Shown here: positions 39,926 through 50,351 of the stretch, in pieces | Position numbering within the stretch: position 1 is the first letter of the stretch | How the letters are laid out: each line of letters starts with the position of its first letter | Origin: Candidatus Heimdallarchaeota archaeon | Lineage (GTDB): Archaea; Asgardarchaeota; Heimdallarchaeia; JABLTI01 | Assembly (NCBI GenBank): GCA_019058275.1 | Contig: JAHLVW010000105.1 | Location: 1-50,351, forward strand | Reading direction: 5' to 3' | Length of the DNA stretch: 50,351 nt | Notes under the pieces: model-generated | What the model was told of the DNA's origin: nothing | The model's database searches: none | What the model saw: only the letters and a program-made list of their open reading frames with translations | Position numbers and translations under genes: made by a program

Positions 39926-41275
39926 TTACAAATCAAAAGCCCGGTGAATTCGTATTAATTTATCTGAATTCGGATTGCGTTGCGGAGATTCAAATCTAAC
40001 TTCTACTGATGGTATTTGACAATTATAGGAAGAAAACACTTCTTCTATTTTCAAATGTATGTTCTTGAAAACCTTTTCTTCATCACAATCTTTTGTTTTC
40101 AAGAGAATACGAACTAAAACATTGTTGTAATCTTTCTGAATTGCTTGATATTCATCGATTTCCTCTGAACTAGAGATAATAGCTCTACGAATGTAATCAG
40201 GAAATATATACTGTAACTCCTCAGTACCATCTCGGTGAGCCCAAAATAAATCATCTGCTCTACCCATTATTTGCTCAATAACTCGAAAAGATGAACCACA
40301 TTTACATTTTTCAGGTGAAATCGTTATAATATCATTCAATTCAAAGCGAATGATTGGTTGTGATTTTTTATTGAGATCTGTCACAATCATTCTGAAGCAA
40401 GGTTTACCTGGTGGTGTTTGATTGCCATTCTGATCCAGGGTTTGTACATACATTAAATCTTCATTGATATGTAATGAGCCATGTTTACAAGTCATGGCGA
40501 TAGCTCCTTCACTACCTTGATAAATTTGATGAACCCTGGTATTGAATACTTGTTCAATCTCTTTTTTAATATCAGGATGAAGTACTTCTGCATAGGAAAC
40601 AAGTCGTTTAGGTCTAATATCTAATCGTCCTTCATTTACTTCTTTTACTAATATCTTCAACATAGACGGCGGAGCTGAAAGGATATTTGGTTGGAATTTT
40701 TGGAGTTTATTTCTAATCTTCTCGAGAGTAAAAAGTAAACTTATGTGAGTTAGCCTTTGACCAAATCTGTTAACTTGAAAAGCTGGTGTTGTTATTCGTA
40801 GAAGAAAAGCCCATTTTATTCTAAGAATCTTGGGAAAATTAAATCGCGCAAAAAGTGCTGCTGCTAAGTATTTTTCTTCAGCTGGACTCGTAATAACAAT
40901 ACCTTTACTACCACTAGTTCCTGAGGACATAGCAATATTATAACCACGAAATCTTTCTGAGTAGTTTTGCTCTTGCTCAATTCTGGTTGTAAAATCAATT
41001 AACTCCTTTTTTGTGAAGCTAACGGTATTATAATCAGTCAAATTACCCATCATAATTTTCTTATTAGTTAAGGGTAAATCCCAAACATTATTGAGATCAT
41101 GATCTTTGTAATGATTTTTGAAGAATGGAGCATTCGCAACTGCAAATTTTACAACTTCCTGTCCTTTTAATAATTGATATTTTTGCAGTTTTTCTTCAGA
41201 CATTCTCTTGAATCGTCTTTTACAACCCAAAAAGAATCGTATAAAAGAATCAGTTTCAGTCATTTTTCTCAACAA
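39926..41275 (-). CDS. Adenylate-forming enzyme (PaaK/F390 synthetase-like, ANL superfamily)
   Basis: SSGTSG (A3), YQGSEG (A5), RFELND (A7), GRADD (A8), terminal K motif. Confidence 0.85.
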   Translation of the reverse strand: MLRKMTETDSFIRFFLGCKRRFKRMSEEKLQKYQLLKGQEVVKFAVANAPFFKNHYKDHDLNNVWDLPLTNKKIMMGNLTDYNTVSFTKKELIDFTTRIEQEQNYSERFRGYNIAMSSGTSGSKGIVITSPAEEKYLAAALFARFNFPKILRIKWAFLLRITTPAFQVNRFGQRLTHISLLFTLEKIRNKLQKFQPNILSAPPSMLKILVKEVNEGRLDIRPKRLVSYAEVLHPDIKKEIEQVFNTRVHQIYQGSEGAIAMTCKHGSLHINEDLMYVQTLDQNGNQTPPGKPCFRMIVTDLNKKSQPIIRFELNDIITISPEKCKCGSSFRVIEQIMGRADDLFWAHRDGTEELQYIFPDYIRRAIISSSEEIDEYQAIQKDYNNVLVRILLKTKDCDEEKVFKNIHLKIEEVFSSYNCQIPSVEVRFESPQRNPNSDKLIRIHRAFDL

Positions 41276-41290
41276 ACTATTTTTCAGCTT

Positions 41291-42532
41291 TTAGCTTAAT
41301 AATTCATCAAGGATTTTTTTAGAAATTTGTCTTTTTAATTTGAGAGGAACTTCTATGCTTTTTTTGCTTTTCTGTACAATTATAACCTCATTTGTTTCAC
41401 TAGCAAACCCTTGCTCTGTTTTATCCAGATAATTAGCAACAACCATATCGATTTTATGTTCCATCAAACTTTTTTGAGCTCTTTTCTCAAGTTCATCTTT
41501 TGTAACATCAACTTCTGCTTTAAAACCAACAATACGAGCTTTTGGGAATTTCTCTTTAACATAATCAATAATTTTCGGAGTTTGTTTCAATTCCAATGAC
41601 AGTGTTTTCTGTTTTGAAGGAATTTTACCTTTTTGCTTTTCAGGTTGATAATCTCCAATTGCTGCTGCGGAGATAAAAATATCAATTGCTTTAATTTTAT
41701 TAATTGAATTAATAATATCTTGTGGAGTTTCAATATGAATGGTGTAGATGTCTGTTGATGGAACTTCTAAACTAGTTGGTCCTAATAAAAGAGTTACTTC
41801 AGCACCACGGCTTACAGCTTCTAAAGCAAGATTGATTCCCATTTTTCCTGTACTTGGGTTACTAATGAATCGAACTTCATCTAACCAAATTCTAGTTGGA
41901 CCGGCTGTTACGAGAACTTTTTTTTTTGCTAAATCATCTGGCGTAAGCATTCCTATAATTTCTTGGAGTATTTCTTCATTTTTAGCGATTTTTGCTTTTC
42001 CTTCTTCCTTTCTTGGACCTATAAATCTAACACCATTTTTCTTTAGCTTCTTAATGTTCTCAACAACCATCGGATTATCATACATTGTCGCATGCATAGC
42101 TGGGACAATAGCTATTGGTATACCTGTTCCAAAAGCTGTAGTAGCAAAAGTAGTTACAACAGTATCATCAATTCCATTAGCAATTTTACCAATTGTATTA
42201 GCGGTCGAGGGGGCAATTAAAAGTAGATCAGCTTTATCGGGATGTTTTCCACAGAGATGAACATGTTCGATTTGTCCGGTTAATTTTGTAATAACAGGAT
42301 TTCCAACTGCCCATTCAACTAAATCAGGTTGAATTAAATCCATTGCTGCAGCAGACATAGCAACATAAATCTCAGCACCATTCCTCATTAACAAACGGGC
42401 AAGATGAACGATTTCTAAAACTGCAACACTTCCAGTCATTCCAATGACTATTTTTTTACCAGCTAATAAATCAGATTTTATACCTGTTATTTCTAATTTT
42501 GATGAATGGTCAGATGGTCTAAATCTTGTCAT
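41291..42532 (-). CDS. coaBC: Phosphopantothenoylcysteine decarboxylase/synthetase (archaeal type)
   Basis: GMTGSVA, IEHV, APSTANTIGK..GIDD, PAMH..M, EEGKAK (archaeal Cys-less clamp), TAGPT, RFISNPSTGKMG, GFKAE, VAN. Confidence 0.96.
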   Translation of the reverse strand: MTRFRPSDHSSKLEITGIKSDLLAGKKIVIGMTGSVAVLEIVHLARLLMRNGAEIYVAMSAAAMDLIQPDLVEWAVGNPVITKLTGQIEHVHLCGKHPDKADLLLIAPSTANTIGKIANGIDDTVVTTFATTAFGTGIPIAIVPAMHATMYDNPMVVENIKKLKKNGVRFIGPRKEEGKAKIAKNEEILQEIIGMLTPDDLAKKKVLVTAGPTRIWLDEVRFISNPSTGKMGINLALEAVSRGAEVTLLLGPTSLEVPSTDIYTIHIETPQDIINSINKIKAIDIFISAAAIGDYQPEKQKGKIPSKQKTLSLELKQTPKIIDYVKEKFPKARIVGFKAEVDVTKDELEKRAQKSLMEHKIDMVVANYLDKTEQGFASETNEVIIVQKSKKSIEVPLKLKRQISKKILDELLS

Positions 42533-42535
42533 TAT

Positions 42536-43738
42536 TCAATCTCCTAGTAATAATATTTCAAGATCTTTTATGAAATTGTCAATCGTTTCTTTTGTTACAT
42601 GTGGCATAACTACAATTCTTATCCAGTTTGAGTATATAGATAGATGCCATCCTTTCTTTTCTAATTCCTTAACTAAATCGACATTTTGCATTTTTGTATT
42701 TGTAAATCCAACAATATTTATCGTTGGATCAAATACTAGCTCTATCTTCTGAGTAACCTTTAATTTTTGAACCAAGTATTGTGTTACTTCTAAAGATTCT
42801 CTAATACGTTCAAGAATATAAGATTCGCCCATTTTCTGGAGTAAAACCCAAGAAGCTACAACAGAAGTACCTGGTCGAGTTCCTGTTATTGTGAATTGTT
42901 TAGTTGATGAATCTGATAAATATGAAATATTTTTTGAAATGGTTTCAACTATTTCTTTTGAACGAAGTATGATAGAACCACCAGGAATTAAGCTCCCTAG
43001 AATTTTATGTGTATCCAAAGAAACACTCATTACACCTTCATTTTCAAAACCGAATGAAGGTGAATTATAACCTAATTTATCAAGATATGGAAAAATTGTC
43101 CCTCCATAAGCAGCATCTACATGTAGGAATAATTCATGATCAATAGCTAAATCACTTAATGCTTTGATATCATCACATATACCTATTCCAGTTGTACCTG
43201 CAATACCAACTATTCCAACTGTATTCTCATCAATTGATTGCTTTACTGCTTCAATGTCAACTTGATAATCTTCTGTTAATGAAACCCAATCAGAATTTAA
43301 GTTTAGAATGTCTGCAGCTTTTTCAAAAGAAACATGAGCTGATTTTGGGAAAATTATCTTGCCATTATTAATACCCTTGACTTTTCTGCTCCAATTGCGT
43401 GCAGCCCAACAACCTATTAAATTGGATTCACTACCACCTGATGTAATCGTTCCACTCCAATTAACTGGCGCATTAACTAACTTCGATAGATGATTAAGAA
43501 CTTCTTTTTCTAGTTGTACGGTTTGAGGAAATAATCCTGGATCTCCTAAATTTATTGCTGCATATTTAGATGCAATCTCTCTGGCAATATCTGGTGGCAG
43601 AGTACACATCGAGCTTAAAACTTGATTATATGATGCTTCCTCACCTAGTAGTACTCTAAGTTCTTTAAACAAATCAGCTATAGTTTGAACCTCTTTTAAG
43701 TAACTCATTTTTCTTGCACCTAAATTAATTTCATTCAA
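42536..43738 (-). CDS. mfnA: PLP-dependent L-aspartate/L-tyrosine decarboxylase (MfnA; beta-alanine supply)
   Basis: LSSMCT.P, NLGDPGLFP, TSGGSESN, AHVSFEKA, HVDAAYGG, DTHK (PLP Lys), GTRPG; start may be 43708. Confidence 0.9.
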   Translation of the reverse strand: MNEINLGARKMSYLKEVQTIADLFKELRVLLGEEASYNQVLSSMCTLPPDIAREIASKYAAINLGDPGLFPQTVQLEKEVLNHLSKLVNAPVNWSGTITSGGSESNLIGCWAARNWSRKVKGINNGKIIFPKSAHVSFEKAADILNLNSDWVSLTEDYQVDIEAVKQSIDENTVGIVGIAGTTGIGICDDIKALSDLAIDHELFLHVDAAYGGTIFPYLDKLGYNSPSFGFENEGVMSVSLDTHKILGSLIPGGSIILRSKEIVETISKNISYLSDSSTKQFTITGTRPGTSVVASWVLLQKMGESYILERIRESLEVTQYLVQKLKVTQKIELVFDPTINIVGFTNTKMQNVDLVKELEKKGWHLSIYSNWIRIVVMPHVTKETIDNFIKDLEILLLGD

Positions 43739-44681
43739 GAAACGATTTTTCCAATGATAAAATTTCGTTGTAAATCTCTTGATTATGGACTACTTTAATA
43801 TTATGTTCTAAACCTAGTGTTACTATTCGTCCATTAATATAGTCAATTTCTGTCTTTCGTTTATTTCGAATGTCAGATAACATAGAACTATAATTTTCAC
43901 CTGTTTTCTTAATGATTTCAAATGTGTATTCTATTGGATTTTCAGTTGTCAATTTAACATTTAATTTTTTGGTAACATTCCAAGCCTCTTGTGCCAATAA
44001 TGTAGCTTTTTCTCTTAGAGGTTTTTGATTGTAGATTTCAAAATTCTTTACATTGTGAATTGCTGTCAAAGGATTTAATGCACAATTAACAATTGTTTTA
44101 GTAAAGACAGCCCCCAAAATATTATCTTCGAGAAAAGAATTAACATCAGATTCTTTCAAAATAGATAAAAGTCTTTCCGCTGGAATTCTTTCTTCTGACG
44201 AATTATATCCAATAAGTGTTTTTCCATCACCTGTAAAATCAACGACTCCATGTTCAGGTCGACAAACACCAATAGACGTTACTACTCTTAAAACAATATT
44301 TTTACTGAAAATTCCTTTTAAAATATCCTCAGTTCCAAGACCATTTTGTATTGAAACAATCGTAGTTTCAGGAAGTATGAGATTCTGTATCTGTTTCGCA
44401 GCTCTTTCAATTTGATGTGCTTTAGTTGTAAATAATACAAACTCTAGAGATTTTTCTGATTCTAACAGATATTGTTGTACTTTTTCTACCTTGTCAAAAG
44501 CAGCGATTTTAACCTCTCGATTTATTAAACCCTGAATTCTTAGAGAATTATTATTTATTTTATCAACATGAGCTTTTCTACCAAATAGTATTATATCATG
44601 ATTTTTGGCAGCTACCAAACCACCAAAAAGACTGCCTACACTACCACTCCCCATTACTAAAATCAAAAATTCAACCCCCAT
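43731..44681 (-). CDS. panE: 2-dehydropantoate 2-reductase
   Basis: GSGSVG, TTKA, IQNGLG, K.IVNCALNPLTA, SSMLSD...KTEIDYING. Confidence 0.93.
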   Translation of the reverse strand: MGVEFLILVMGSGSVGSLFGGLVAAKNHDIILFGRKAHVDKINNNSLRIQGLINREVKIAAFDKVEKVQQYLLESEKSLEFVLFTTKAHQIERAAKQIQNLILPETTIVSIQNGLGTEDILKGIFSKNIVLRVVTSIGVCRPEHGVVDFTGDGKTLIGYNSSEERIPAERLLSILKESDVNSFLEDNILGAVFTKTIVNCALNPLTAIHNVKNFEIYNQKPLREKATLLAQEAWNVTKKLNVKLTTENPIEYTFEIIKKTGENYSSMLSDIRNKRKTEIDYINGRIVTLGLEHNIKVVHNQEIYNEILSLEKSFLE

Positions 44682-45486
44682 AAGAATATTCTAATGTGGG
44701 ATATTCACCTTCCTCAACTTCCTTAGCATAATCTTTAGCTGCTTTTAAAATAGTCTTGCGAAGGTTGGCGTATGTCTTTACAAATTTAGGTTTATGTCCA
44801 GTAGTGCAACCAAGCATGTCATAGCAAACTAAAACTTGACCATCACAATGTGGACCAGCTCCAATGCCTATTGTTGGAATTTTTAAAGCGTTGGTTATCT
44901 TTTTTGCAACATCATGGGGTATTGCTTCTAATATAATTGAAAAACAACCAGCTTCTTCTAAGCTTTTTGCTTGTTGGATTAATTCATCTTCAGTATAGAA
45001 AGATTCAGGTTTTCCTTGAACTTTGTAACCACCTAATTTGTATGCAGATTGTGGGATCAATCCAATATGCCCTTGTACGGGGATTCCAATATCAACTATT
45101 GCTCGGATTTCTTTTAACCGTGTTTCACTTGCACCCTCTAATTTCACAGCTTCAGCATGACCTTGTTTTATTAATTTACCAGCATTTGCTACTGTTTCAT
45201 CAATTGTCAACCCATAGCTTAAGAAAGGCATATCACCAATAACCAAACTATAATTCTTAGCACCCCTAGTAACTGCTTGACAATGACGAATAGACATATC
45301 TAATGTTACTTCTAAAGTTGTATCAGCACCATAAATGGTTTGACCCATTGTATCACCAACAAGTAATACATCTATTTTTGCTTCGTCAAATATTGTTGCC
45401 AAGCTATAATCATAAGCAGTCAACATGGAGATTTTTTTACCAGTTTTTTTCATTTTTTGTATATCAAATGCTGTTATTTTTGCCAT
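44671..45486 (-). CDS. panB: 3-methyl-2-oxobutanoate hydroxymethyltransferase
   Basis: MLTAYD, LLVGD, DMPFLSY, VKLEG, GHIGLIPQ, TIGIGAG, CDGQVLV. Confidence 0.97.
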   Translation of the reverse strand: MAKITAFDIQKMKKTGKKISMLTAYDYSLATIFDEAKIDVLLVGDTMGQTIYGADTTLEVTLDMSIRHCQAVTRGAKNYSLVIGDMPFLSYGLTIDETVANAGKLIKQGHAEAVKLEGASETRLKEIRAIVDIGIPVQGHIGLIPQSAYKLGGYKVQGKPESFYTEDELIQQAKSLEEAGCFSIILEAIPHDVAKKITNALKIPTIGIGAGPHCDGQVLVCYDMLGCTTGHKPKFVKTYANLRKTILKAAKDYAKEVEEGEYPTLEYSYGG

Positions 45487-45488
45487 GA

Positions 45489-46280
45489 CTATCCTTCCTT
45501 GAGCTGTTTCTGAGCTAATTTGATTAGTCTATCAGACATAAATCTAAGGCTATCTTGAAGTAAATTATTGTTATCATATTTATCAATAATGGTTATTAGT
45601 TCTTCTTTGGATTTCTTTGTCAAATCATCAGCTATATCGAGCATCTCTCGAGTAGCTCTTCTTACATGATTCACTATTGTCACATTACTCCAAACAGATG
45701 TTCTTGACATTGGATTTAAATCAACACTTATGACTTTTTTTCCCATTTTCCTTAGAACCATTGTTCTGTCACCATCTTCCAATGGAACAAAAACAACATC
45801 AGCCAGGAAAATCCCATTCAGATCTACTATTCTTCTTTTATGGGTTATTTCAGGGATGCTTTTAGCTCGATCACCTAAATGTACTCCAAGAACTTCTTTA
45901 GCACCAGCATCCTTTAAAACAGATTCAATATTTTTCTCTCGCTCTTTAGTACGGTAAAAAAGATTTACTTCTAATTTTGCTGAGGTTTTTTCTGCAAGCT
46001 GAACTAATTCTTTAGGACATAAAACAGCTACATTACCATTTACAGAAATTACTGGATGTTCAGCTAATAGAAGTATAGCAACTGCAGCTTCTTCTTGAAT
46101 CAAAGCGTATGCAGGAGTTTCTTCACCCAGAATATAATCGAATGCTTCCCCTCTTCCATGAGCAATTAAACCTGCCTCAGCAACAATCTTTTGATGCATA
46201 CCATCAATTATTGCATGTCGCTCTTTCAATGATAAATATCGAGGATGATCTTCTGGTACTTCAGTCAAAAATCTCACCAT
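45489..46280 (-). CDS. 4-phosphopantoate--beta-alanine ligase (phosphopantothenate synthetase, PPS)
   Basis: VPEDHPRYLSL, GLIAHGRGEAFDYILGE, SVNGN, EVNLFYRT, VPLEDGDR, DLNPMSRT. Confidence 0.95.
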   Translation of the reverse strand: MVRFLTEVPEDHPRYLSLKERHAIIDGMHQKIVAEAGLIAHGRGEAFDYILGEETPAYALIQEEAAVAILLLAEHPVISVNGNVAVLCPKELVQLAEKTSAKLEVNLFYRTKEREKNIESVLKDAGAKEVLGVHLGDRAKSIPEITHKRRIVDLNGIFLADVVFVPLEDGDRTMVLRKMGKKVISVDLNPMSRTSVWSNVTIVNHVRRATREMLDIADDLTKKSKEELITIIDKYDNNNLLQDSLRFMSDRLIKLAQKQLKEG

Positions 46281-46293
46281 AATTCAAGTGGAA

Positions 46294-47208
46294 TTACCAA
46301 ACTGCTACTTTTATTGGACCTACATTAGCTAAAGCATCAATCCAAATTTTAGCATTTGGGTCATAATTATCAATGATGTTACTGCATTCTTCCAAATCGT
46401 AAATATCCCCGATTACGAATAATGATTCACCTAACATAACCATGTTTGCTCGAAATTCATCCTCTCTTAGATATTCGATTAATTCTTTTAACTTACCAGT
46501 CATTAACCCCGTTTTATTTGCGAACTCATAACTAACTCTTAGAAATTCATCTAAAGTTGGATTTTGTTCTAAATCAGCTAAAAGCTTTTCAGAATTAGTA
46601 TTTATTCTGTTTATCATTTCTTCATTAGTAATTATTTCTTTGGTTGAAAGCTTACCCAAAGTGGCCGTTAATATCATTTCCTCTTTTGGCCAATCAAGTA
46701 GTTTTATTACACCAATTCCTGGTGCTCCAGGTTTTAGTCGAATTTCTGCGTTCCCTAACATTTGTGCTATTACATCACCAAGACCAGTTCTACAGGAAAC
46801 CTCAGCAACATGAGCCATTTGACCTAATTCTTGATTTGATTTCTTAGTATCAAAAATCTCATTTAATGCCAAAGCTGTTCCAATAGCACCTGCACCACTT
46901 GTTCCATAACCGGCTTGAATTGGAAAATCGCTCTTATGATTAATTATTAGGGATGATTTTTCGAAATACTTCCCAAAATTATTTGCAACAGCTTTACTTA
47001 CTTTACCATCAATCTCTTGATCATTGTAGAGAACTCTAATCTGCTTCTTTGAAGATTCATCATATTTTACAAGTGTTCTAATACGATTAGAGAGAGAAAA
47101 TCCAGCACCACGTGAACCCATCAATAAAGGATTTTCATGTTCAAATATTTGAAATACGCCAGTGATGTGTGCTGGTACAGCCCATATGCTCGATTTTCTT
47201 ATTGCCAT
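46294..47208 (-). CDS. Pantoate kinase (GHMP family, PoK)
   Basis: PAHITGVF, GSRGAG, PIQAGYGTSGA, AHVAEV...TGLGDV, PGAPG, MVMLGES. Confidence 0.93.
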   Translation of the reverse strand: MAIRKSSIWAVPAHITGVFQIFEHENPLLMGSRGAGFSLSNRIRTLVKYDESSKKQIRVLYNDQEIDGKVSKAVANNFGKYFEKSSLIINHKSDFPIQAGYGTSGAGAIGTALALNEIFDTKKSNQELGQMAHVAEVSCRTGLGDVIAQMLGNAEIRLKPGAPGIGVIKLLDWPKEEMILTATLGKLSTKEIITNEEMINRINTNSEKLLADLEQNPTLDEFLRVSYEFANKTGLMTGKLKELIEYLREDEFRANMVMLGESLFVIGDIYDLEECSNIIDNYDPNAKIWIDALANVGPIKVAVW

Positions 47209-47367
47209 AATTTTTCTATTGTTCTGAAATGTATTTAGATTTAAGAAATTACTTCTAAATCTTTTTAACTAGAAAATTTTTTTAACATCTATATGCTTGT
47301 AGTGAAAGAATAATTGTTTCTATTCCTAATGATTAGTGATTAAACTCAAACAGGAGAGTAGTCAACA

Positions 47368-47720
47368 ATGGCAGAAATAACAACTATAGAAGAATCTAGT
47401 AAGTATAATTTTGGAAAGTTTCTGATAGCATTAGCTCTTGTTATATTTGCTTATGCTGTAGCAATTGGAGCAGCTTTTGGTATTGGTTATGGATTAACCA
47501 TTTAGCTTGGTACCCACTGTGGATTACCTTAGTAGCCGATGTTGGTGCTACATTAGTAATTTTCATTTTCAGTGTTATTTTCAATAATGTTAGTTTTTAT
47601 GATCCATACTGGAGTATTCAACCCATTGTAATTGCTGTATATTGGATGTTCCTCCCCCAAGCAGCAAGTGCAAATCCTATAAGACAGATGATTATTATTG
47701 GTTGTGTCGCCTTTTGGGGT
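47368..47720 (+). pseudogene. DUF1295 (steroid 5-alpha reductase-like) membrane protein, frameshifted and truncated
   Basis: Fragments in different frames: ...ADVGATLVIFIFSVIFNNVSFYDPYWSIQP...FWG; homology stops at the GGGG tract at 47716-47719. Confidence 0.8.
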
Positions 47721-47756
47721 CGCAACTGTTGCCCTAAAATATGGACAAATAGGACA
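47716..47756 (+). repeat. 41-bp imperfect direct repeat, copy 1 (putative IS607-type element end)
   Basis: GGGGT-CGCA-ACTGTTGC-N7-TATGGACAA-A-TAGGACA; GGACA motifs 9 bp apart. Confidence 0.75.
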
Positions 47757-47870
47757 TCATAGGTTTTAGGTGGGCAAGGGTAATATGCTAAGGGAATTAT
47801 TGAGAAAGACTAACTAGTAAGAAGGGTTTCATTAGCTGGCATGAAATTATCAGAGTGGGCACAACAAAAA

Positions 47871-47911
47871 GGGGTTGTGACTGTTGCTGTTTTTTATGGA
47901 CAATTAGGGCA
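47871..47911 (+). repeat. 41-bp imperfect direct repeat, copy 2
   Basis: GGGGT-TGTG-ACTGTTGC-N7-TATGGACAA-T-TAGGGCA; GGACA/GGGCA motifs 9 bp apart. Confidence 0.75.
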
Positions 47912-48107
47912 GAGTTAGAAATCATTCATTTAGTAATTTAATAGAAATTTTTTACAAGAATATTTTGAGAATTAAAAGAAGGAGGCAGTTTGGATAGCAA
48001 AGATCGATCGGCAATAGGTGAATACAATGAGAGTTTGGGATATTTTGCTATTGCAAACCAATTAGTGACATATTATAATCTATCAATTGTTTTTTTTGAG
48101 ATTGTAG

Positions 48108-50351
48108 TTATTTTCGTATTTTCTTTTCATCTTTTACATAATTCTTCAACCTCAAAGTGTCCATGGTTTCTGTGGGAGTTATAACCAAAACACACTTCTG
48201 GTCATATCTTTTCCCTTTCTTTGTCCAGTGACCTAATCCATAGACTCTCTCTTTTTCGTTATAGAATCGTTTATGAAAGTGCCCAATTACCAGATGAGTT
48301 TCTTGAGTAATCTTTTTTGGCAACCTACTGCGACCATCACTAATTAGTTTCCTTTTTGCGATTATTGTTGCCCCCTCCTCATTTGTTCGCTTCACTTCTT
48401 TTGGATCTATTCCAATCTTATTGCCATGGACAATCAGCACTTCTCCTGCAGCTGTTTCTAGCCATGCATAGTCTTGCTGTAGGATATTAGCAAAATATGC
48501 CAACGTAGCATCATGGATGGTCGAGCTTCTTATTAGCACCAGCTTCGACCAAAAACCTTCACTGATAGCTACTTGCAATAATTTCTTTACTGATTCTTCA
48601 CCTGCCTTACCTTCCTTATCCAACAAATCACCATTAATGATCACAATATCTGCTTGAGCACTTAGATCACTCAATGCTTCAAAGAATTCTTTTTCAAAGC
48701 TATACTCACCTCCAAGGTGTATATCTGATAATGCAACGATTTTTCCTTCACAATAATTTGGTTGTATAGTTATTTGCTCTTCGAGTTGTTCGTACCAATC
48801 AGTTTCTGCTAGCTTCTCCAAATCTTGCGCTAAAAGCACCAATTTCTCTTTAGAGCCTTGAGGGAATTCACCTATTAATTCCCCGTAGCATTTCTTACAG
48901 CCCTCTGCACATGAGCAATCCACTAATCTCTTTCTCAATTGTTCTACCACTTCTTTCAAATGCTTGTAGAGATAGCCAGCATTTCCTTTTCCTCTCCCCT
49001 TATCATATAATGCTAATTGCTTGTTGTTGCTTATTAGCCCTAGCTCTGTTGAAGGTACTCCTAGCACCACCTCAGTTTCAATCAGGAGCAATCTTCCAAA
49101 CAATTTTAGCATTCCTTTATTCGTTCTCCCTTTTGCTTTCAGTGATTCTATCCTCAAATCAAGAATTATTCCTTCGACTCTCTCTCTGATGCTATATTCT
49201 TGGGCTTCGTCTTCGGTTAATTCCTGCCAGCAGTAGCCACCTGCTTCTTCGTTGCTTGTTTCTAAAATCCTCCTTTTTGGGTTGGCATTGACTATTGCTT
49301 TTGGTCTGCGTTCAATATTAAGCTGTCCAAAATGAATGTTAACAAGCGCAGGTCCTTGTGAGACTTTTGGTAAAATTCCCATTGAGATGCTCGGGTCAGA
49401 CAAGCTATTGAAAGGCAATTTAGTGAATTCCTCCCCTTTAGCTAGATGCTTCTTAACCAGAACACTTCTTTCGCTATGGTCAATGTCCACTACTAGATAC
49501 TTCTGCCTATTTCGAGTCAGAATGTTCCCAGGCAAGCCTTTCCTCAAAACATCTCTTGTAGCTATTTTCCCAACAAGCATCCCCTCAGCTTGACTTGTTG
49601 TATCATATCTCAGCAGCTGGTTGATCGTCCAGCCTCTATCGATGGCTCGTATAGAGAGTGGCACTAACCCTTTCTTTTCCGAGAGGAGTTCTTCACCATG
49701 ACTAGTGAATAGCAGTTTACCACTATCCTTTTTCAAGATCATTTGAGTGACTAAACGTGCATATTGCTGTCGAGCTAGCTCATGAGCGACTGTTCCTTCC
49801 TTGAGAAAGAAAGTCATAATATCTCGAAAGTCAGTAATTCCATAACGCAACAACAAAATCAGTAATCCAGCGAAAACCTTGGCGTTCCTCTTTGGATAGA
49901 GGATAGGGTTACAAGCATTTGTCTCGAGAATCTTTTGAAGTATTTCCTTGTGCTCCCAATAAAATCTATCTCGAGCATTTCCTAAATCGAAGATGAAGGT
50001 ATTTACTCTTCGCTCTCCTGGCTTGGAGCGATTCCGAGCCATCCTTTGGACGATACCATCTTTCTGAGTGATAGGAATGCCGATGTTAATGACAGTCTGG
50101 ATGTTTTGGATGTTCACTCCCAACTCAAGAACAGATGAGGAGATCACTATTCGGATAATGTTTTGCTCTCCCTTTTGCAGTTCATCCAAGACTTTTTTTC
50201 TGTGCATGTAAGGCATGTCTGCATGGATAACTACCACTGTTTGTTCATCAAAGAATTCGTTCTTTTGTTTGAGAGCAAAACATAACAGTTCGGCAAGCAA
50301 TTCAATGTCCTCTTTTGAATCAGCAAAGACAAGGCAGGCTCTCCCAGGTAT
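48108..50351 (-). CDS. YprA/Hrq1-like SF2 helicase (C-terminal RecA domain) + DUF1998 Zn domain + C-terminal metallophosphoesterase; 5'-partial
   Basis: Frame open to the window edge (IPGRACLVFADSKEDIE, motif IV); SSSVLELGVNI (V); QRMARNR (degenerate VI); LYD...GNAG...CSCAEGCKKC (DUF1998); SDIHLG, NGDLLD, HD, VHG, GHFH (MPP). Confidence 0.82.
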   Translation of the reverse strand: MPGRACLVFADSKEDIELLAELLCFALKQKNEFFDEQTVVVIHADMPYMHRKKVLDELQKGEQNIIRIVISSSVLELGVNIQNIQTVINIGIPITQKDGIVQRMARNRSKPGERRVNTFIFDLGNARDRFYWEHKEILQKILETNACNPILYPKRNAKVFAGLLILLLRYGITDFRDIMTFFLKEGTVAHELARQQYARLVTQMILKKDSGKLLFTSHGEELLSEKKGLVPLSIRAIDRGWTINQLLRYDTTSQAEGMLVGKIATRDVLRKGLPGNILTRNRQKYLVVDIDHSERSVLVKKHLAKGEEFTKLPFNSLSDPSISMGILPKVSQGPALVNIHFGQLNIERRPKAIVNANPKRRILETSNEEAGGYCWQELTEDEAQEYSIRERVEGIILDLRIESLKAKGRTNKGMLKLFGRLLLIETEVVLGVPSTELGLISNNKQLALYDKGRGKGNAGYLYKHLKEVVEQLRKRLVDCSCAEGCKKCYGELIGEFPQGSKEKLVLLAQDLEKLAETDWYEQLEEQITIQPNYCEGKIVALSDIHLGGEYSFEKEFFEALSDLSAQADIVIINGDLLDKEGKAGEESVKKLLQVAISEGFWSKLVLIRSSTIHDATLAYFANILQQDYAWLETAAGEVLIVHGNKIGIDPKEVKRTNEEGATIIAKRKLISDGRSRLPKKITQETHLVIGHFHKRFYNEKERVYGLGHWTKKGKRYDQKCVLVITPTETMDTLRLKNYVKDEKKIRK

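Follow-up and report, generated by a model that had tools for sequence, protein, structure and literature searches.

A TnpB-bearing Asgard transposon with IS607-type ends and helicase-nuclease and Cas1-fold cargo, probably moved in trans by a serine transposase

What lies at the end of this contig? The window (the whole stretch of 50,351 nucleotides analysed, contig C101 of genome G000, a Heimdall-group Asgard archaeon MAG) runs out inside a helicase gene behind two copies of a repeat, and a sequence-only reading had taken the part from the second copy onwards for a cargo element mobilised through IS607-type ends. Our analysis indicates with good probability that the window end is the left end of a discrete transposon, inserted at a GG in a DUF1295 gene and devoid of a working transposase of its own, which would be moved in trans by an IS607 serine transposase and whose cargo would aid break processing or integration. 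The features concerned are, in window coordinates:

47369-47719, plus strand: 5' fragment of a gene for a DUF1295-family membrane protein (Pfam DUF1295, 3.5e-5)
47718-47720, no strand: left junction, placed by aligning both junctions of the element (the right one on contig C27) with the empty site in genome G004
47720-47757, plus strand: outer left end (copy 1), with an 11-nt palindrome (47722-47732) and the 18-nt block TATGGACAAATAGGACAT (47740-47757)
47842-47874, plus strand: start of an IS607-family tnpA, reduced to a stump of 11 codons (MKLSEWAQQKG) that breaks off at GG; 91% identity over 35 nt to the start of tnpA on C11, aligned with the C11 and C117 starts
47876-47912, plus strand: inner left end (copy 2), nested in the tnpA stump and matching the left-end consensus
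47913-48107, no strand: non-coding spacer separating the inner left end from the stop codon of the helicase gene, with no notable ORF, 98% conserved in the G004 copy
48108-50351, minus strand: SF2 DExH helicase with a four-cysteine MZB domain and a metallophosphoesterase (Pfam), 3' 747 of 1,052 codons, the first ~306 codons lying on C27:15242-16160; approximate domain spans are 50034-50345 (Helicase_C), 48888-49073 (MZB) and 48243-48743 (phosphoesterase)

The DUF1295 gene locates the insertion. Besides its truncation, the 5' fragment carries a 1-nt deletion (frameshift) near 47500, within a T run, as judged by alignment to G004, where the intact ortholog encodes 317 aa (Pfam 3e-48). Up to 47720 the G004 sequence follows the window, and after that it follows C27 from 7363 downwards, its DUF1295 gene being unbroken, and in G000 the 3' half of the gene (C27:7363-6791) abuts the right end of the element, beyond which the sequence is plain host DNA. 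The transposon between the two halves measures 11,424 bp; the window holds its left 2.6 kb (47720-50351) and the remainder runs on C27 from 16160 down to 7364, which is where the far boundary, whose search had been advised, was located. C27 and C101 were joined on the basis of a 4-nt overlap and of the contiguous G004 copy (G004:C104), and the last 21-127 nt of the window showed no exact overlap with any other contig. The sequence-only reading was thus right to see a mobile unit but placed its start too far inwards, at copy 2 (47871), whereas the inserted DNA begins at copy 1 (47718-47720).

The two junctions have GGT in common and the empty site holds it a single time, which is as finely as the break can be placed, and the crossover dinucleotide is likely the GG at 47718-47719. 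A second filled/empty pair was provided by the G004 copy, which occupies another site (C104, C286) that is empty in G000 (C69), and GG was found at all four junctions of the two pairs and once per empty site. The element is a discrete unit whose location differs between two sister genomes, each insertion being bordered by GG on either side and its counterpart site cleanly empty. Its copies in G000 and G004 share 98-99% identity, against only 94-96% for the host DNA. In the G008 subfamily GG ends the left flank and T starts the right flank, leaving only GG in common; since these copies have no GGT on the left, a 3-bp GGT target duplication was dropped as a model, although a 2-bp duplication of GG would also fit the junctions. 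The left flanks of the copies read RGGG.

Consistently with the G+C enrichment over the host flank that had been suggested from two lines of sequence, 47871-50351 had a G+C of 0.395 against 0.324 ± 0.023 in genome windows of equal length (z = 3.1, top 0.4%). Codon and tetranucleotide checks agreed: third-codon G+C was 0.38 in the helicase gene and 0.17-0.24 in the 11 host genes of the window, and the tetranucleotide distance from the genome reached z = 2.4 in the part inside the window and z = 4.8 when the complete element was taken, a value surpassed by none of 300 random windows. We counted this foreign composition in favour of a transposon.

The two repeat copies (47717-47762 and 47872-47917) have the same orientation and are identical at 30 of 46 positions without gaps, the identity lying in conserved blocks, and both fit a family of left ends that occurs at least ten times in G000. 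Ends of the outer type precede an intact IS607 tnpA on C117 and a tnpA on C11, the left end lying ~120 nt ahead of tnpA in the sister copies, and the C117 TnpA (189 aa) scored 186 bits on the IS607 family transposase model NF033518 (cut-off 110). Here, of the serine transposase with N-terminal HTH (TnpA_S) that marks an IS607 member, only codons 1-11 are present. Since sister elements with the same left end encode TnpA, we regard this one as a derivative without its own transposase gene, not as an autonomous member. Left ends of the inner type were found directly behind the helicase stop codon, with no tnpA, on C50, G008:C9 and G010:C17, and by this sequence comparison the inner end is the one native to the cargo element without tnpA; the nesting would have arisen when such an element inserted into the tnpA of an autonomous one, whose distal part was then lost. 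The 18-nt block of the outer left end has a perfect inverted copy near the right end (C27:7375-7392), and the resulting subterminal inverted repeat (18 nt perfect, 22 nt in relatives) is set back by 20 nt from the left junction and by 11 nt from the right one. Rfam gave no match at the left end, including the spacer, or at the right end. In G008, a dozen near-identical ends were located at contig ends.

In window orientation, the element runs from the outer left end through the 11-codon tnpA stump and the inner left end to the helicase-MZB-phosphoesterase (minus strand), a Cas1-fold giant (minus), a LAGLIDADG-HTH protein (minus), TnpB (plus), a guide-RNA scaffold and the right end. The same gene order was found in contiguous copies of G008 and G010, with proteins 35-67% identical, and tnpA-bearing relatives also carry RadA and a partner protein. 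When related loci were sought with one element protein, only the G004 contig (a Candidatus Heimdallarchaeota MAG) was returned.

As had been claimed from the sequence, no transposase follows repeat copy 2, the only ORF of at least 100 aa there being the convergent helicase gene, which is open at the contig end and matches Pfam Helicase_C, MZB and Metallophos; in the helicase as a whole DEAD, Helicase_C and MZB were all matched. YprA (6znp) was among its best PDB sequence matches, and its closest solved relatives include YprA/MrfA, Cas3 and a 2,108-aa DEAD/DEAH box helicase (chain 9tu7_Y). With an SF2 DExH core, Helicase_C and a C-terminal four-cysteine MZB domain, it belongs with the MrfA/YprA (DUF1998/MZB) helicases. 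The fold of its C-terminal 353 aa matched best Mre11, SbcD, LpxH and the PolD small subunit; neither the metal ligands nor the four cysteines varied in 22 homologs, and the third phosphoesterase motif is a variant. In bacterial operons of Lhr-core helicase and MPE phosphoesterase, a helicase is likewise paired with a nuclease-type partner; here, unlike in these and in MrfA/YprA, the helicase is fused to its partner, an Mre11-like phosphoesterase, and a transposon encodes the fusion. In 5.8 billion proteins the fused form makes up ~30 clusters, nearly all from Heimdall-group MAGs.

The giant protein has 1,367 residues, and an AlphaFold model of residues 840-1167 (pLDDT 87) retrieved casposase and Cas1 chains with probability 1.0, the best structural match being the casposase 6opm; the Cas1 fold keeps the invariant E, H and D residues. 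Among PDB sequences, Cas1 was not found with a profile built from five sequences of the giant, the fold search alone detecting it, and HMM evidence for Cas1 was limited to the C11 paralog. Distant Cas1-like giants also occur in G077, with neither helicase nor TnpB nearby. The third cargo protein is WhiA-like (LAGLIDADG-HTH), and TnpB, with its stop codon 37 nt short of the right end, keeps the RuvC D, E and D residues and a zinc ribbon. Covarying helices fill the last ~150 nt ahead of the right end, with nine pairs showing double-sided compensatory changes among eight copies, so that, as in IS607 members, TnpB is accompanied by a guide-RNA scaffold ending at the right end. Miniature copies of ~375 bp, composed of left end, RNA scaffold and right end with no gene, also exist; in these the ends alone suffice, which is neutral as to whether an IS607 or a Cas1 enzyme is the mover. 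C5 has 368 bp that G004 lacks, and these are not a miniature copy of this family.

How does this element relate to known ones? IS607-family insertion sequences, with the serine transposase TnpA and TnpB, were reportedly described by Kersulyte in 2000, and are usually regarded as two-gene insertion sequences of about 2 kb. By its junctions the element belongs with them: two filled/empty pairs show GG on both sides, no target duplication and a scarless empty site, the target flank is RGGG, TnpB and RNA scaffold abut the right end, and the TnpA of a sister copy passes the NCBIfam IS607 model. The proposal of a larger cargo element with IS607-type ends is thus borne out: it exceeds an IS607, lacks a transposase gene, has the ends that stand before an IS607-family transposase gene and carries repair-like cargo. 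In contrast to IS607, it spans 11.4 kb, has four large genes between its ends and contains a second left end, nested in the 11 codons that are left of tnpA. In a measured IS607 element TGGG serves as target and TAM, and IS607 has been described as having no inverted repeats, yet short inverted motifs are needed for TnpA binding (10.1101/2023.11.20.567912). The subterminal inverted repeat of 18-22 bp found here therefore departs from IS607 and counts against an IS607 assignment, although the difference may be one of degree only.

An undescribed Asgard class, as had been suggested, it is not, since elements of this kind are already in print. In passing, Altae-Tran et al. 2023 (PMC10691335) mention TnpB 'Ser-3' loci, with a serine recombinase, HTH, an ATP-dependent helicase and WhiA/meganuclease-like cargo, as well as Asgard Cas1-TnpB loci (Cas1H-Asgard-1/-2), and propose Asgard Cas1 as a transposase; one paragraph and a figure are devoted to such loci, and ends, target, empty sites and cargo folds are not reported, whereas here the exact ends and the empty sites can be seen. 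Asgard Cas1 homologs are also treated by Makarova et al. 2020, as cited in PMC8730458. Judged by the published descriptions of both types of loci, our element resembles them in its Asgard host, TnpB with a serine recombinase in relatives, helicase, LAGLIDADG-HTH protein, large proteins with no sequence-level matches, Cas1-family domain and flanking repeats, and, as in the Cas1-TnpB loci, a repeat-flanked Cas1-family protein stands beside TnpB in an Asgard genome. It differs in that the Cas1-type and serine-recombinase-type associations are joined in one element family. The hypervariable region that, downstream of tnpB, is reported to be followed by a conserved 9-nt GTTCACTCA-like motif (PMC10691335) was not found in our element; of the motif the element and its 300-nt flanks contain no exact match, and elsewhere there were just chance one-mismatch hits. 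Aloposons of Heimdallarchaeum (PMC8813620), like it, are large Asgard-specific transposons with very large proteins, but their tRNA-gene integration, tandem 3,000-6,000-aa proteins and ParA-like ATPase are all absent here, and identity with them was rejected.

Movement in trans by a serine transposase of the C117 type is the most likely mechanism, because the left-end type precedes tnpA on C117 and C11 and the C117 TnpA belongs to the IS607 family. This enzyme would excise the element as a double-stranded circle, the GG of which would then be recombined with a target GG. TnpB, with an RNA reading past the right end into the flank, would cut vacated sites beside the RGGG motif, and recombination at the cut would copy the element back. 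Helicase, Mre11-like nuclease and Cas1-like protein, together with RadA in tnpA-bearing relatives, would most likely serve break processing or integration, not host defence.

Casposons are driven by Cas1 and self-synthesising, with a family B DNA polymerase, terminal inverted repeats and a 14-15-bp target duplication. Could the Cas1-family giant, perhaps with the helicase-nuclease, be the real transposase here, the tnpA stump and tnpA-bearing relatives being secondary? The 11-kb form would then be autonomous, and the giant with helicase and nuclease would integrate it or feed DNA to TnpB-triggered repair. Every complete 11-kb copy seen lacks tnpA, in every genome, which counts against movement by an IS607 transposase, and no serine recombinase was detected in the ten other genomes of the genus with the Pfam resolvase model and the C117 protein, including G004, G008 and G010, which have full elements, and despite apparently recent miniature copies; this absence is weak counter-evidence, because these MAGs are 64-90% complete and repeats assemble badly. 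The invariant E, H and D residues, the transposase role suggested for Asgard Cas1 (PMC10691335) and the inverted repeats near the termini, as in casposons, point the same way. We nevertheless consider a Cas1 mover improbable. Cas1 integrases and casposases leave long staggered duplications, and the junctions share GG only; the same end type stands in canonical position ahead of an IS607-family tnpA; and the RGGG target is that of IS607. Compared with casposons, the element has no family B polymerase among its four genes, its Cas1 domain is embedded in a much larger protein, and it combines TnpB with IS607-type ends. Were it true nonetheless, this would be a Cas1-driven, TnpB-guarded transposon class apart from casposons, and a living case of cooperation, within a single mobile element, between Cas1 and an ancestor of Cas12.

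For the cargo alone, a role as anti-virus defence that benefits the host and hitch-hikes in the transposon is similarly doubtful. Mobile elements often carry defence genes, Cas3 and 9tu7_Y are among the closest solved helicases, and PADLOC gave weak helicase-level matches to SngC, BrxH, Cas3 and DruE; PADLOC 2.0 yielded no system model, however, only generic helicase and TnpB/Cas12-level matches, with none for the Cas1-like and LAGLIDADG proteins. The fixed order with TnpB inside the ends, kept across copies as divergent as 35-67% identity, suits core functions better than swappable cargo, and the RadA and partner protein of tnpA-bearing relatives are recombination machinery. That there is no mobile element at all, the helicase being native to the CoA operon, the contig chimeric or misbinned, or the region a tRNA island with a tyrosine integrase, has almost no probability left, even though the contig stops inside the helicase gene and the estimated contamination of the G000 MAG is 6.8%. 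The break falls exactly inside an otherwise conserved gene whose other half abuts the matching right end, and a single G004 contig joins C101 and C27. At the locus, three relatives show pantoate kinase, intact DUF1295 and genes of 155 and 608 aa; a helicase is missing there, so that it is not syntenic with the CoA operon. Neither boundary has a tRNA gene in its vicinity, and a tyrosine integrase is absent and would find no space among the element's four large genes.

We thus retain the reading of an IS607 type grown to an 11-14-kb transposon, which lives in the archaea most closely related to eukaryotes and has a conserved kit: a Cas1-fold protein, a fusion of helicase and Mre11-like nuclease, a WhiA-like protein and, in some copies, RadA. 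Many of the contig breaks in these MAGs are also explained by the element. The two reciprocal filled/empty pairs supply exact substrates (ends, donor joint, probable TAM and guide), which bear on whether an IS607 transposase or the Cas1-like protein is the mover, on the role of Asgard 'solo' Cas1, and on transposon-borne break repair supporting TnpB homing.

The window lies in a Candidatus Heimdallarchaeota MAG (G000; 4.12 Mb, 118 contigs, G+C 32.5%) and constitutes the whole of contig C101, whose end at 50351 interrupts a gene. Its right part contains the following features:

39926-47208, minus strand: coenzyme A operon (Pfam)
next after the operon, plus strand: short fragment of a DUF1295 gene (Pfam)
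47717-47762 and 47872-47917, same orientation: two co-oriented repeats, copy 1 and copy 2, identical at 30/46 positions
47842-47874: tnpA stump of 11 codons, broken at GG, with 91% DNA identity to the tnpA gene of contig C11
48108-50351, convergent: helicase ORF with Helicase_C, MZB and Metallophos (Pfam)

According to Pfam, the operon encodes a GHMP kinase (in our reading, the archaeal-pathway pantoate kinase), phosphopantothenate synthetase, ketopantoate hydroxymethyltransferase and ketopantoate reductase, as well as a PLP-dependent decarboxylase and Dfp. The sequence-only reading had placed a candidate cargo-carrying, IS607-ended transposon or island at 47871-50351, G+C-rich and with no transposase after copy 2. 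The analysis bears out these features: the helicase is the sole large ORF after the repeats, and the G+C content of this stretch is 0.395 compared with 0.324 +/- 0.023 for windows of the same size (z = 3.1, top 0.4%), in agreement with third-codon G+C (0.38 in the helicase vs 0.17-0.24 in host genes) and with tetranucleotide distance. At the other end of the window, positions 1-106 are identical to the final 106 nt of C31 (3495-3600), which probably joins there.

Comparison with genomes of the same genus delimited the insertion. G004 matches window 42960-47720 at ~95% identity, beyond which it runs into G000 contig C27, from 7363 downwards, without the helicase; its DUF1295 gene is whole (317 aa), and the 3' half of the G000 gene lies on C27. 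Gene order is the same in G008 and G009, and examination of helicase synteny with the coenzyme A operon thus found no helicase at this locus in any of the three relatives. The helicase N-terminal 306 codons are at the end of C27, and one contiguous G004 contig reveals a 4-nt overlap between the C101 and C27 ends. This overlap, together with G004 collinearity, defines an insert made of window 47720-50351 plus C27 16160-7364 (11,424 bp in total), which supplies the far boundary sought beyond the contig end. Within the DUF1295 5' fragment, a T run (47495-47505) has one T fewer than in G004, which shifts the reading frame and creates a TAG stop at 47504, through either post-insertion decay or a homopolymer error.

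G004 carries a 98-99% identical element, complete with the stump and the two left-end copies, at another site, which is uninterrupted in G000 (C69), whereas host DNA is only 94-96% identical between the two genomes. The element moves as a unit. GG(T) is found at each junction and once per empty site in both filled/empty pairs; in a high-copy G008 subfamily GG closes the left flank and T opens the right flank, so that the junctions have only GG in common. Left flanks read RGGG throughout, resembling what was measured for an IS607 element, namely a strict GG and a TGGG target/TAM (10.1101/2023.11.20.567912). Three G008 left junctions near contig ends read GA, not GG.

G000 and G004 differ a second time ~5 kb past the right end (G000:C5:45970-46628 and G000:C27:1-2204). 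C5 terminates in a TnpB 3' part and a right end precisely where G004 is continuous, and C27 starts with a RadA paralog and a 304-aa gene adjoining an unrelated repeat family common to C24, C39, C49 and the C117 end; the difference probably reflects a further element or a rearrangement. A further 2.2 kb with three small ORFs (253, 196 and 66 aa; G000:C27:2205-4366) is absent at the matching G004 site.

Copy 1 is a left end: a short palindrome and a T run are accompanied by an 18-nt block, of which a perfect inverted copy lies 11 nt inside the right end. This left-end type occurs at least ten times in G000, and precedes a tnpA gene by ~120 nt on both C117 and C11; the C117 product (189 aa) scores 186 bits on the NCBIfam IS607 transposase model (cut-off 110). 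The C11 gene (G000:C11:76118-76240) is split just after the HTH, where an A run differs by 1 nt from the intact C117 gene, and may be a pseudogene or need a frameshift. Copy 2 directly follows the stump and is a second left end; in C50, G008:C9 and G010:C17 an end of this type stands right behind the helicase stop, without tnpA. The simplest history would be that a cargo element without tnpA landed in the tnpA gene of an autonomous relative and that the distal part was afterwards lost, possibly by recombination between the two right ends, leaving a composite that would now use the outer left end.

In window orientation, the ends are followed by genes for the helicase, a 1,367-residue protein, a 540-residue LAGLIDADG + HTH protein and TnpB. 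The helicase combines a Walker A motif (GKS) and a DEIH box with an MZB domain of four cysteines and, at its C terminus, a phosphoesterase, and its matches among PDB sequences include YprA/MrfA and Cas3. A model of its final 353 residues (pLDDT 79) best matched Mre11, SbcD, LpxH and the PolD small subunit; the metal ligands of the phosphoesterase do not vary among 22 homologs, and its third motif is a variant one. The 1,367-residue protein has no family match at sequence level; its residues 840-1167 have a confidently predicted Cas1/casposase fold (pLDDT 87, pTM 0.87), and Cas1 HMMs reach the C11 paralog only. TnpB (543 residues) retains the RuvC D, E and D residues and a zinc ribbon. Helices supported by compensatory changes across eight copies occupy the final ~150 nt before the right end, as expected of the guide-RNA scaffold. 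Around 25 paralogs of the LAGLIDADG-HTH protein occur genome-wide in G000, several divergently paired with TnpB and with no helicase nearby, a combination that may be mobile in its own right.

About ten helicase-phosphoesterase loci exist in G000, many at contig ends and most linked to Cas1-like, LAGLIDADG and TnpB genes; the tnpA-bearing version (C11, C117) additionally encodes a RadA paralog and a protein of 304 aa. G008 and G010 hold complete tnpA-less copies (~11.2 kb, same gene order, 35-67% protein identity). Miniature copies of ~375 bp comprise left end, RNA scaffold and right end; two gene-free ones in G000 (C117:50554-50929 and C45:13188-13541) are 97% identical. A dozen near-identical left ends and ~8 right ends lie within 100-400 nt of G008 contig ends, a pattern suggestive of recent amplification of ~320-bp miniature copies in this genome, where no serine recombinase was detected. 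The C50 and C17 copies are probably decaying, with an in-frame TAG in the Cas1-like gene (G000:C50:3653-7750) and two in-frame TGA codons in the helicase (G000:C17:6090-9092). A scrambled, stop-ridden left-region remnant (spacer and helicase 3' end; 57% aa, 71-76% nt identity) is located at the end of a 6.8-kb contig (G000:C108:5811-6717). The close family is present in 7/9 sampled genus genomes, and among 301 genomes sampled four other Asgard families contain Cas1-like relatives at greater distance, one of them again with helicase, phosphoesterase and LAGLIDADG genes nearby. Among 5.8 billion proteins the fused helicase accounts for ~30 clusters, and nearly all of the few with a source name are labelled Heimdallarchaeota.

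Junction chemistry, target motif and the link between this end type and IS607 tnpA together argue that a serine transposase would mobilise the element in trans, and TnpB could guide its homing, as demonstrated for IS605/IS607 (10.1101/2023.11.20.567912). This reading is weakest in one respect: no serine recombinase was found in the ten other genus genomes, despite full elements and the apparently recent G008 miniature copies. MAG incompleteness may explain the absence, which nevertheless sustains the published suggestion that Asgard Cas1 is itself the transposase. Against that suggestion, Cas1-type integration should produce a long duplication, and the junctions show no such duplication. As for the cargo, for which defence or repair had been proposed, its gene order is fixed in divergent copies and the tnpA-bearing version carries recombination genes, which makes a function in break processing or integration of the element itself more probable than host defence, for which PADLOC gave no system-level match.

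The finding is real, and the sequence-only reading was right in substance about a larger element with IS607-type ends, but not about an undescribed class, as elements of this kind have already been noted in print. Altae-Tran et al. 2023 (PMC10691335) reported serine-recombinase-associated TnpB branches, some with an HTH protein, an ATP-dependent helicase, a WhiA/meganuclease-like protein (a label whose counterpart here is the LAGLIDADG-HTH protein) and proteins without known domains, as well as TnpB associated with Asgard Cas1 homologs; a review noted that new mobile elements may include some of these homologs. Aloposons are distinct from this element. Our literature search found no description of the ends, target or empty sites of such elements. 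Relative to this literature, the analysis contributes exact ends, a pair of reciprocal empty sites, the nested left end with its tnpA stump, and the predicted Cas1-like and Mre11-like domain folds.
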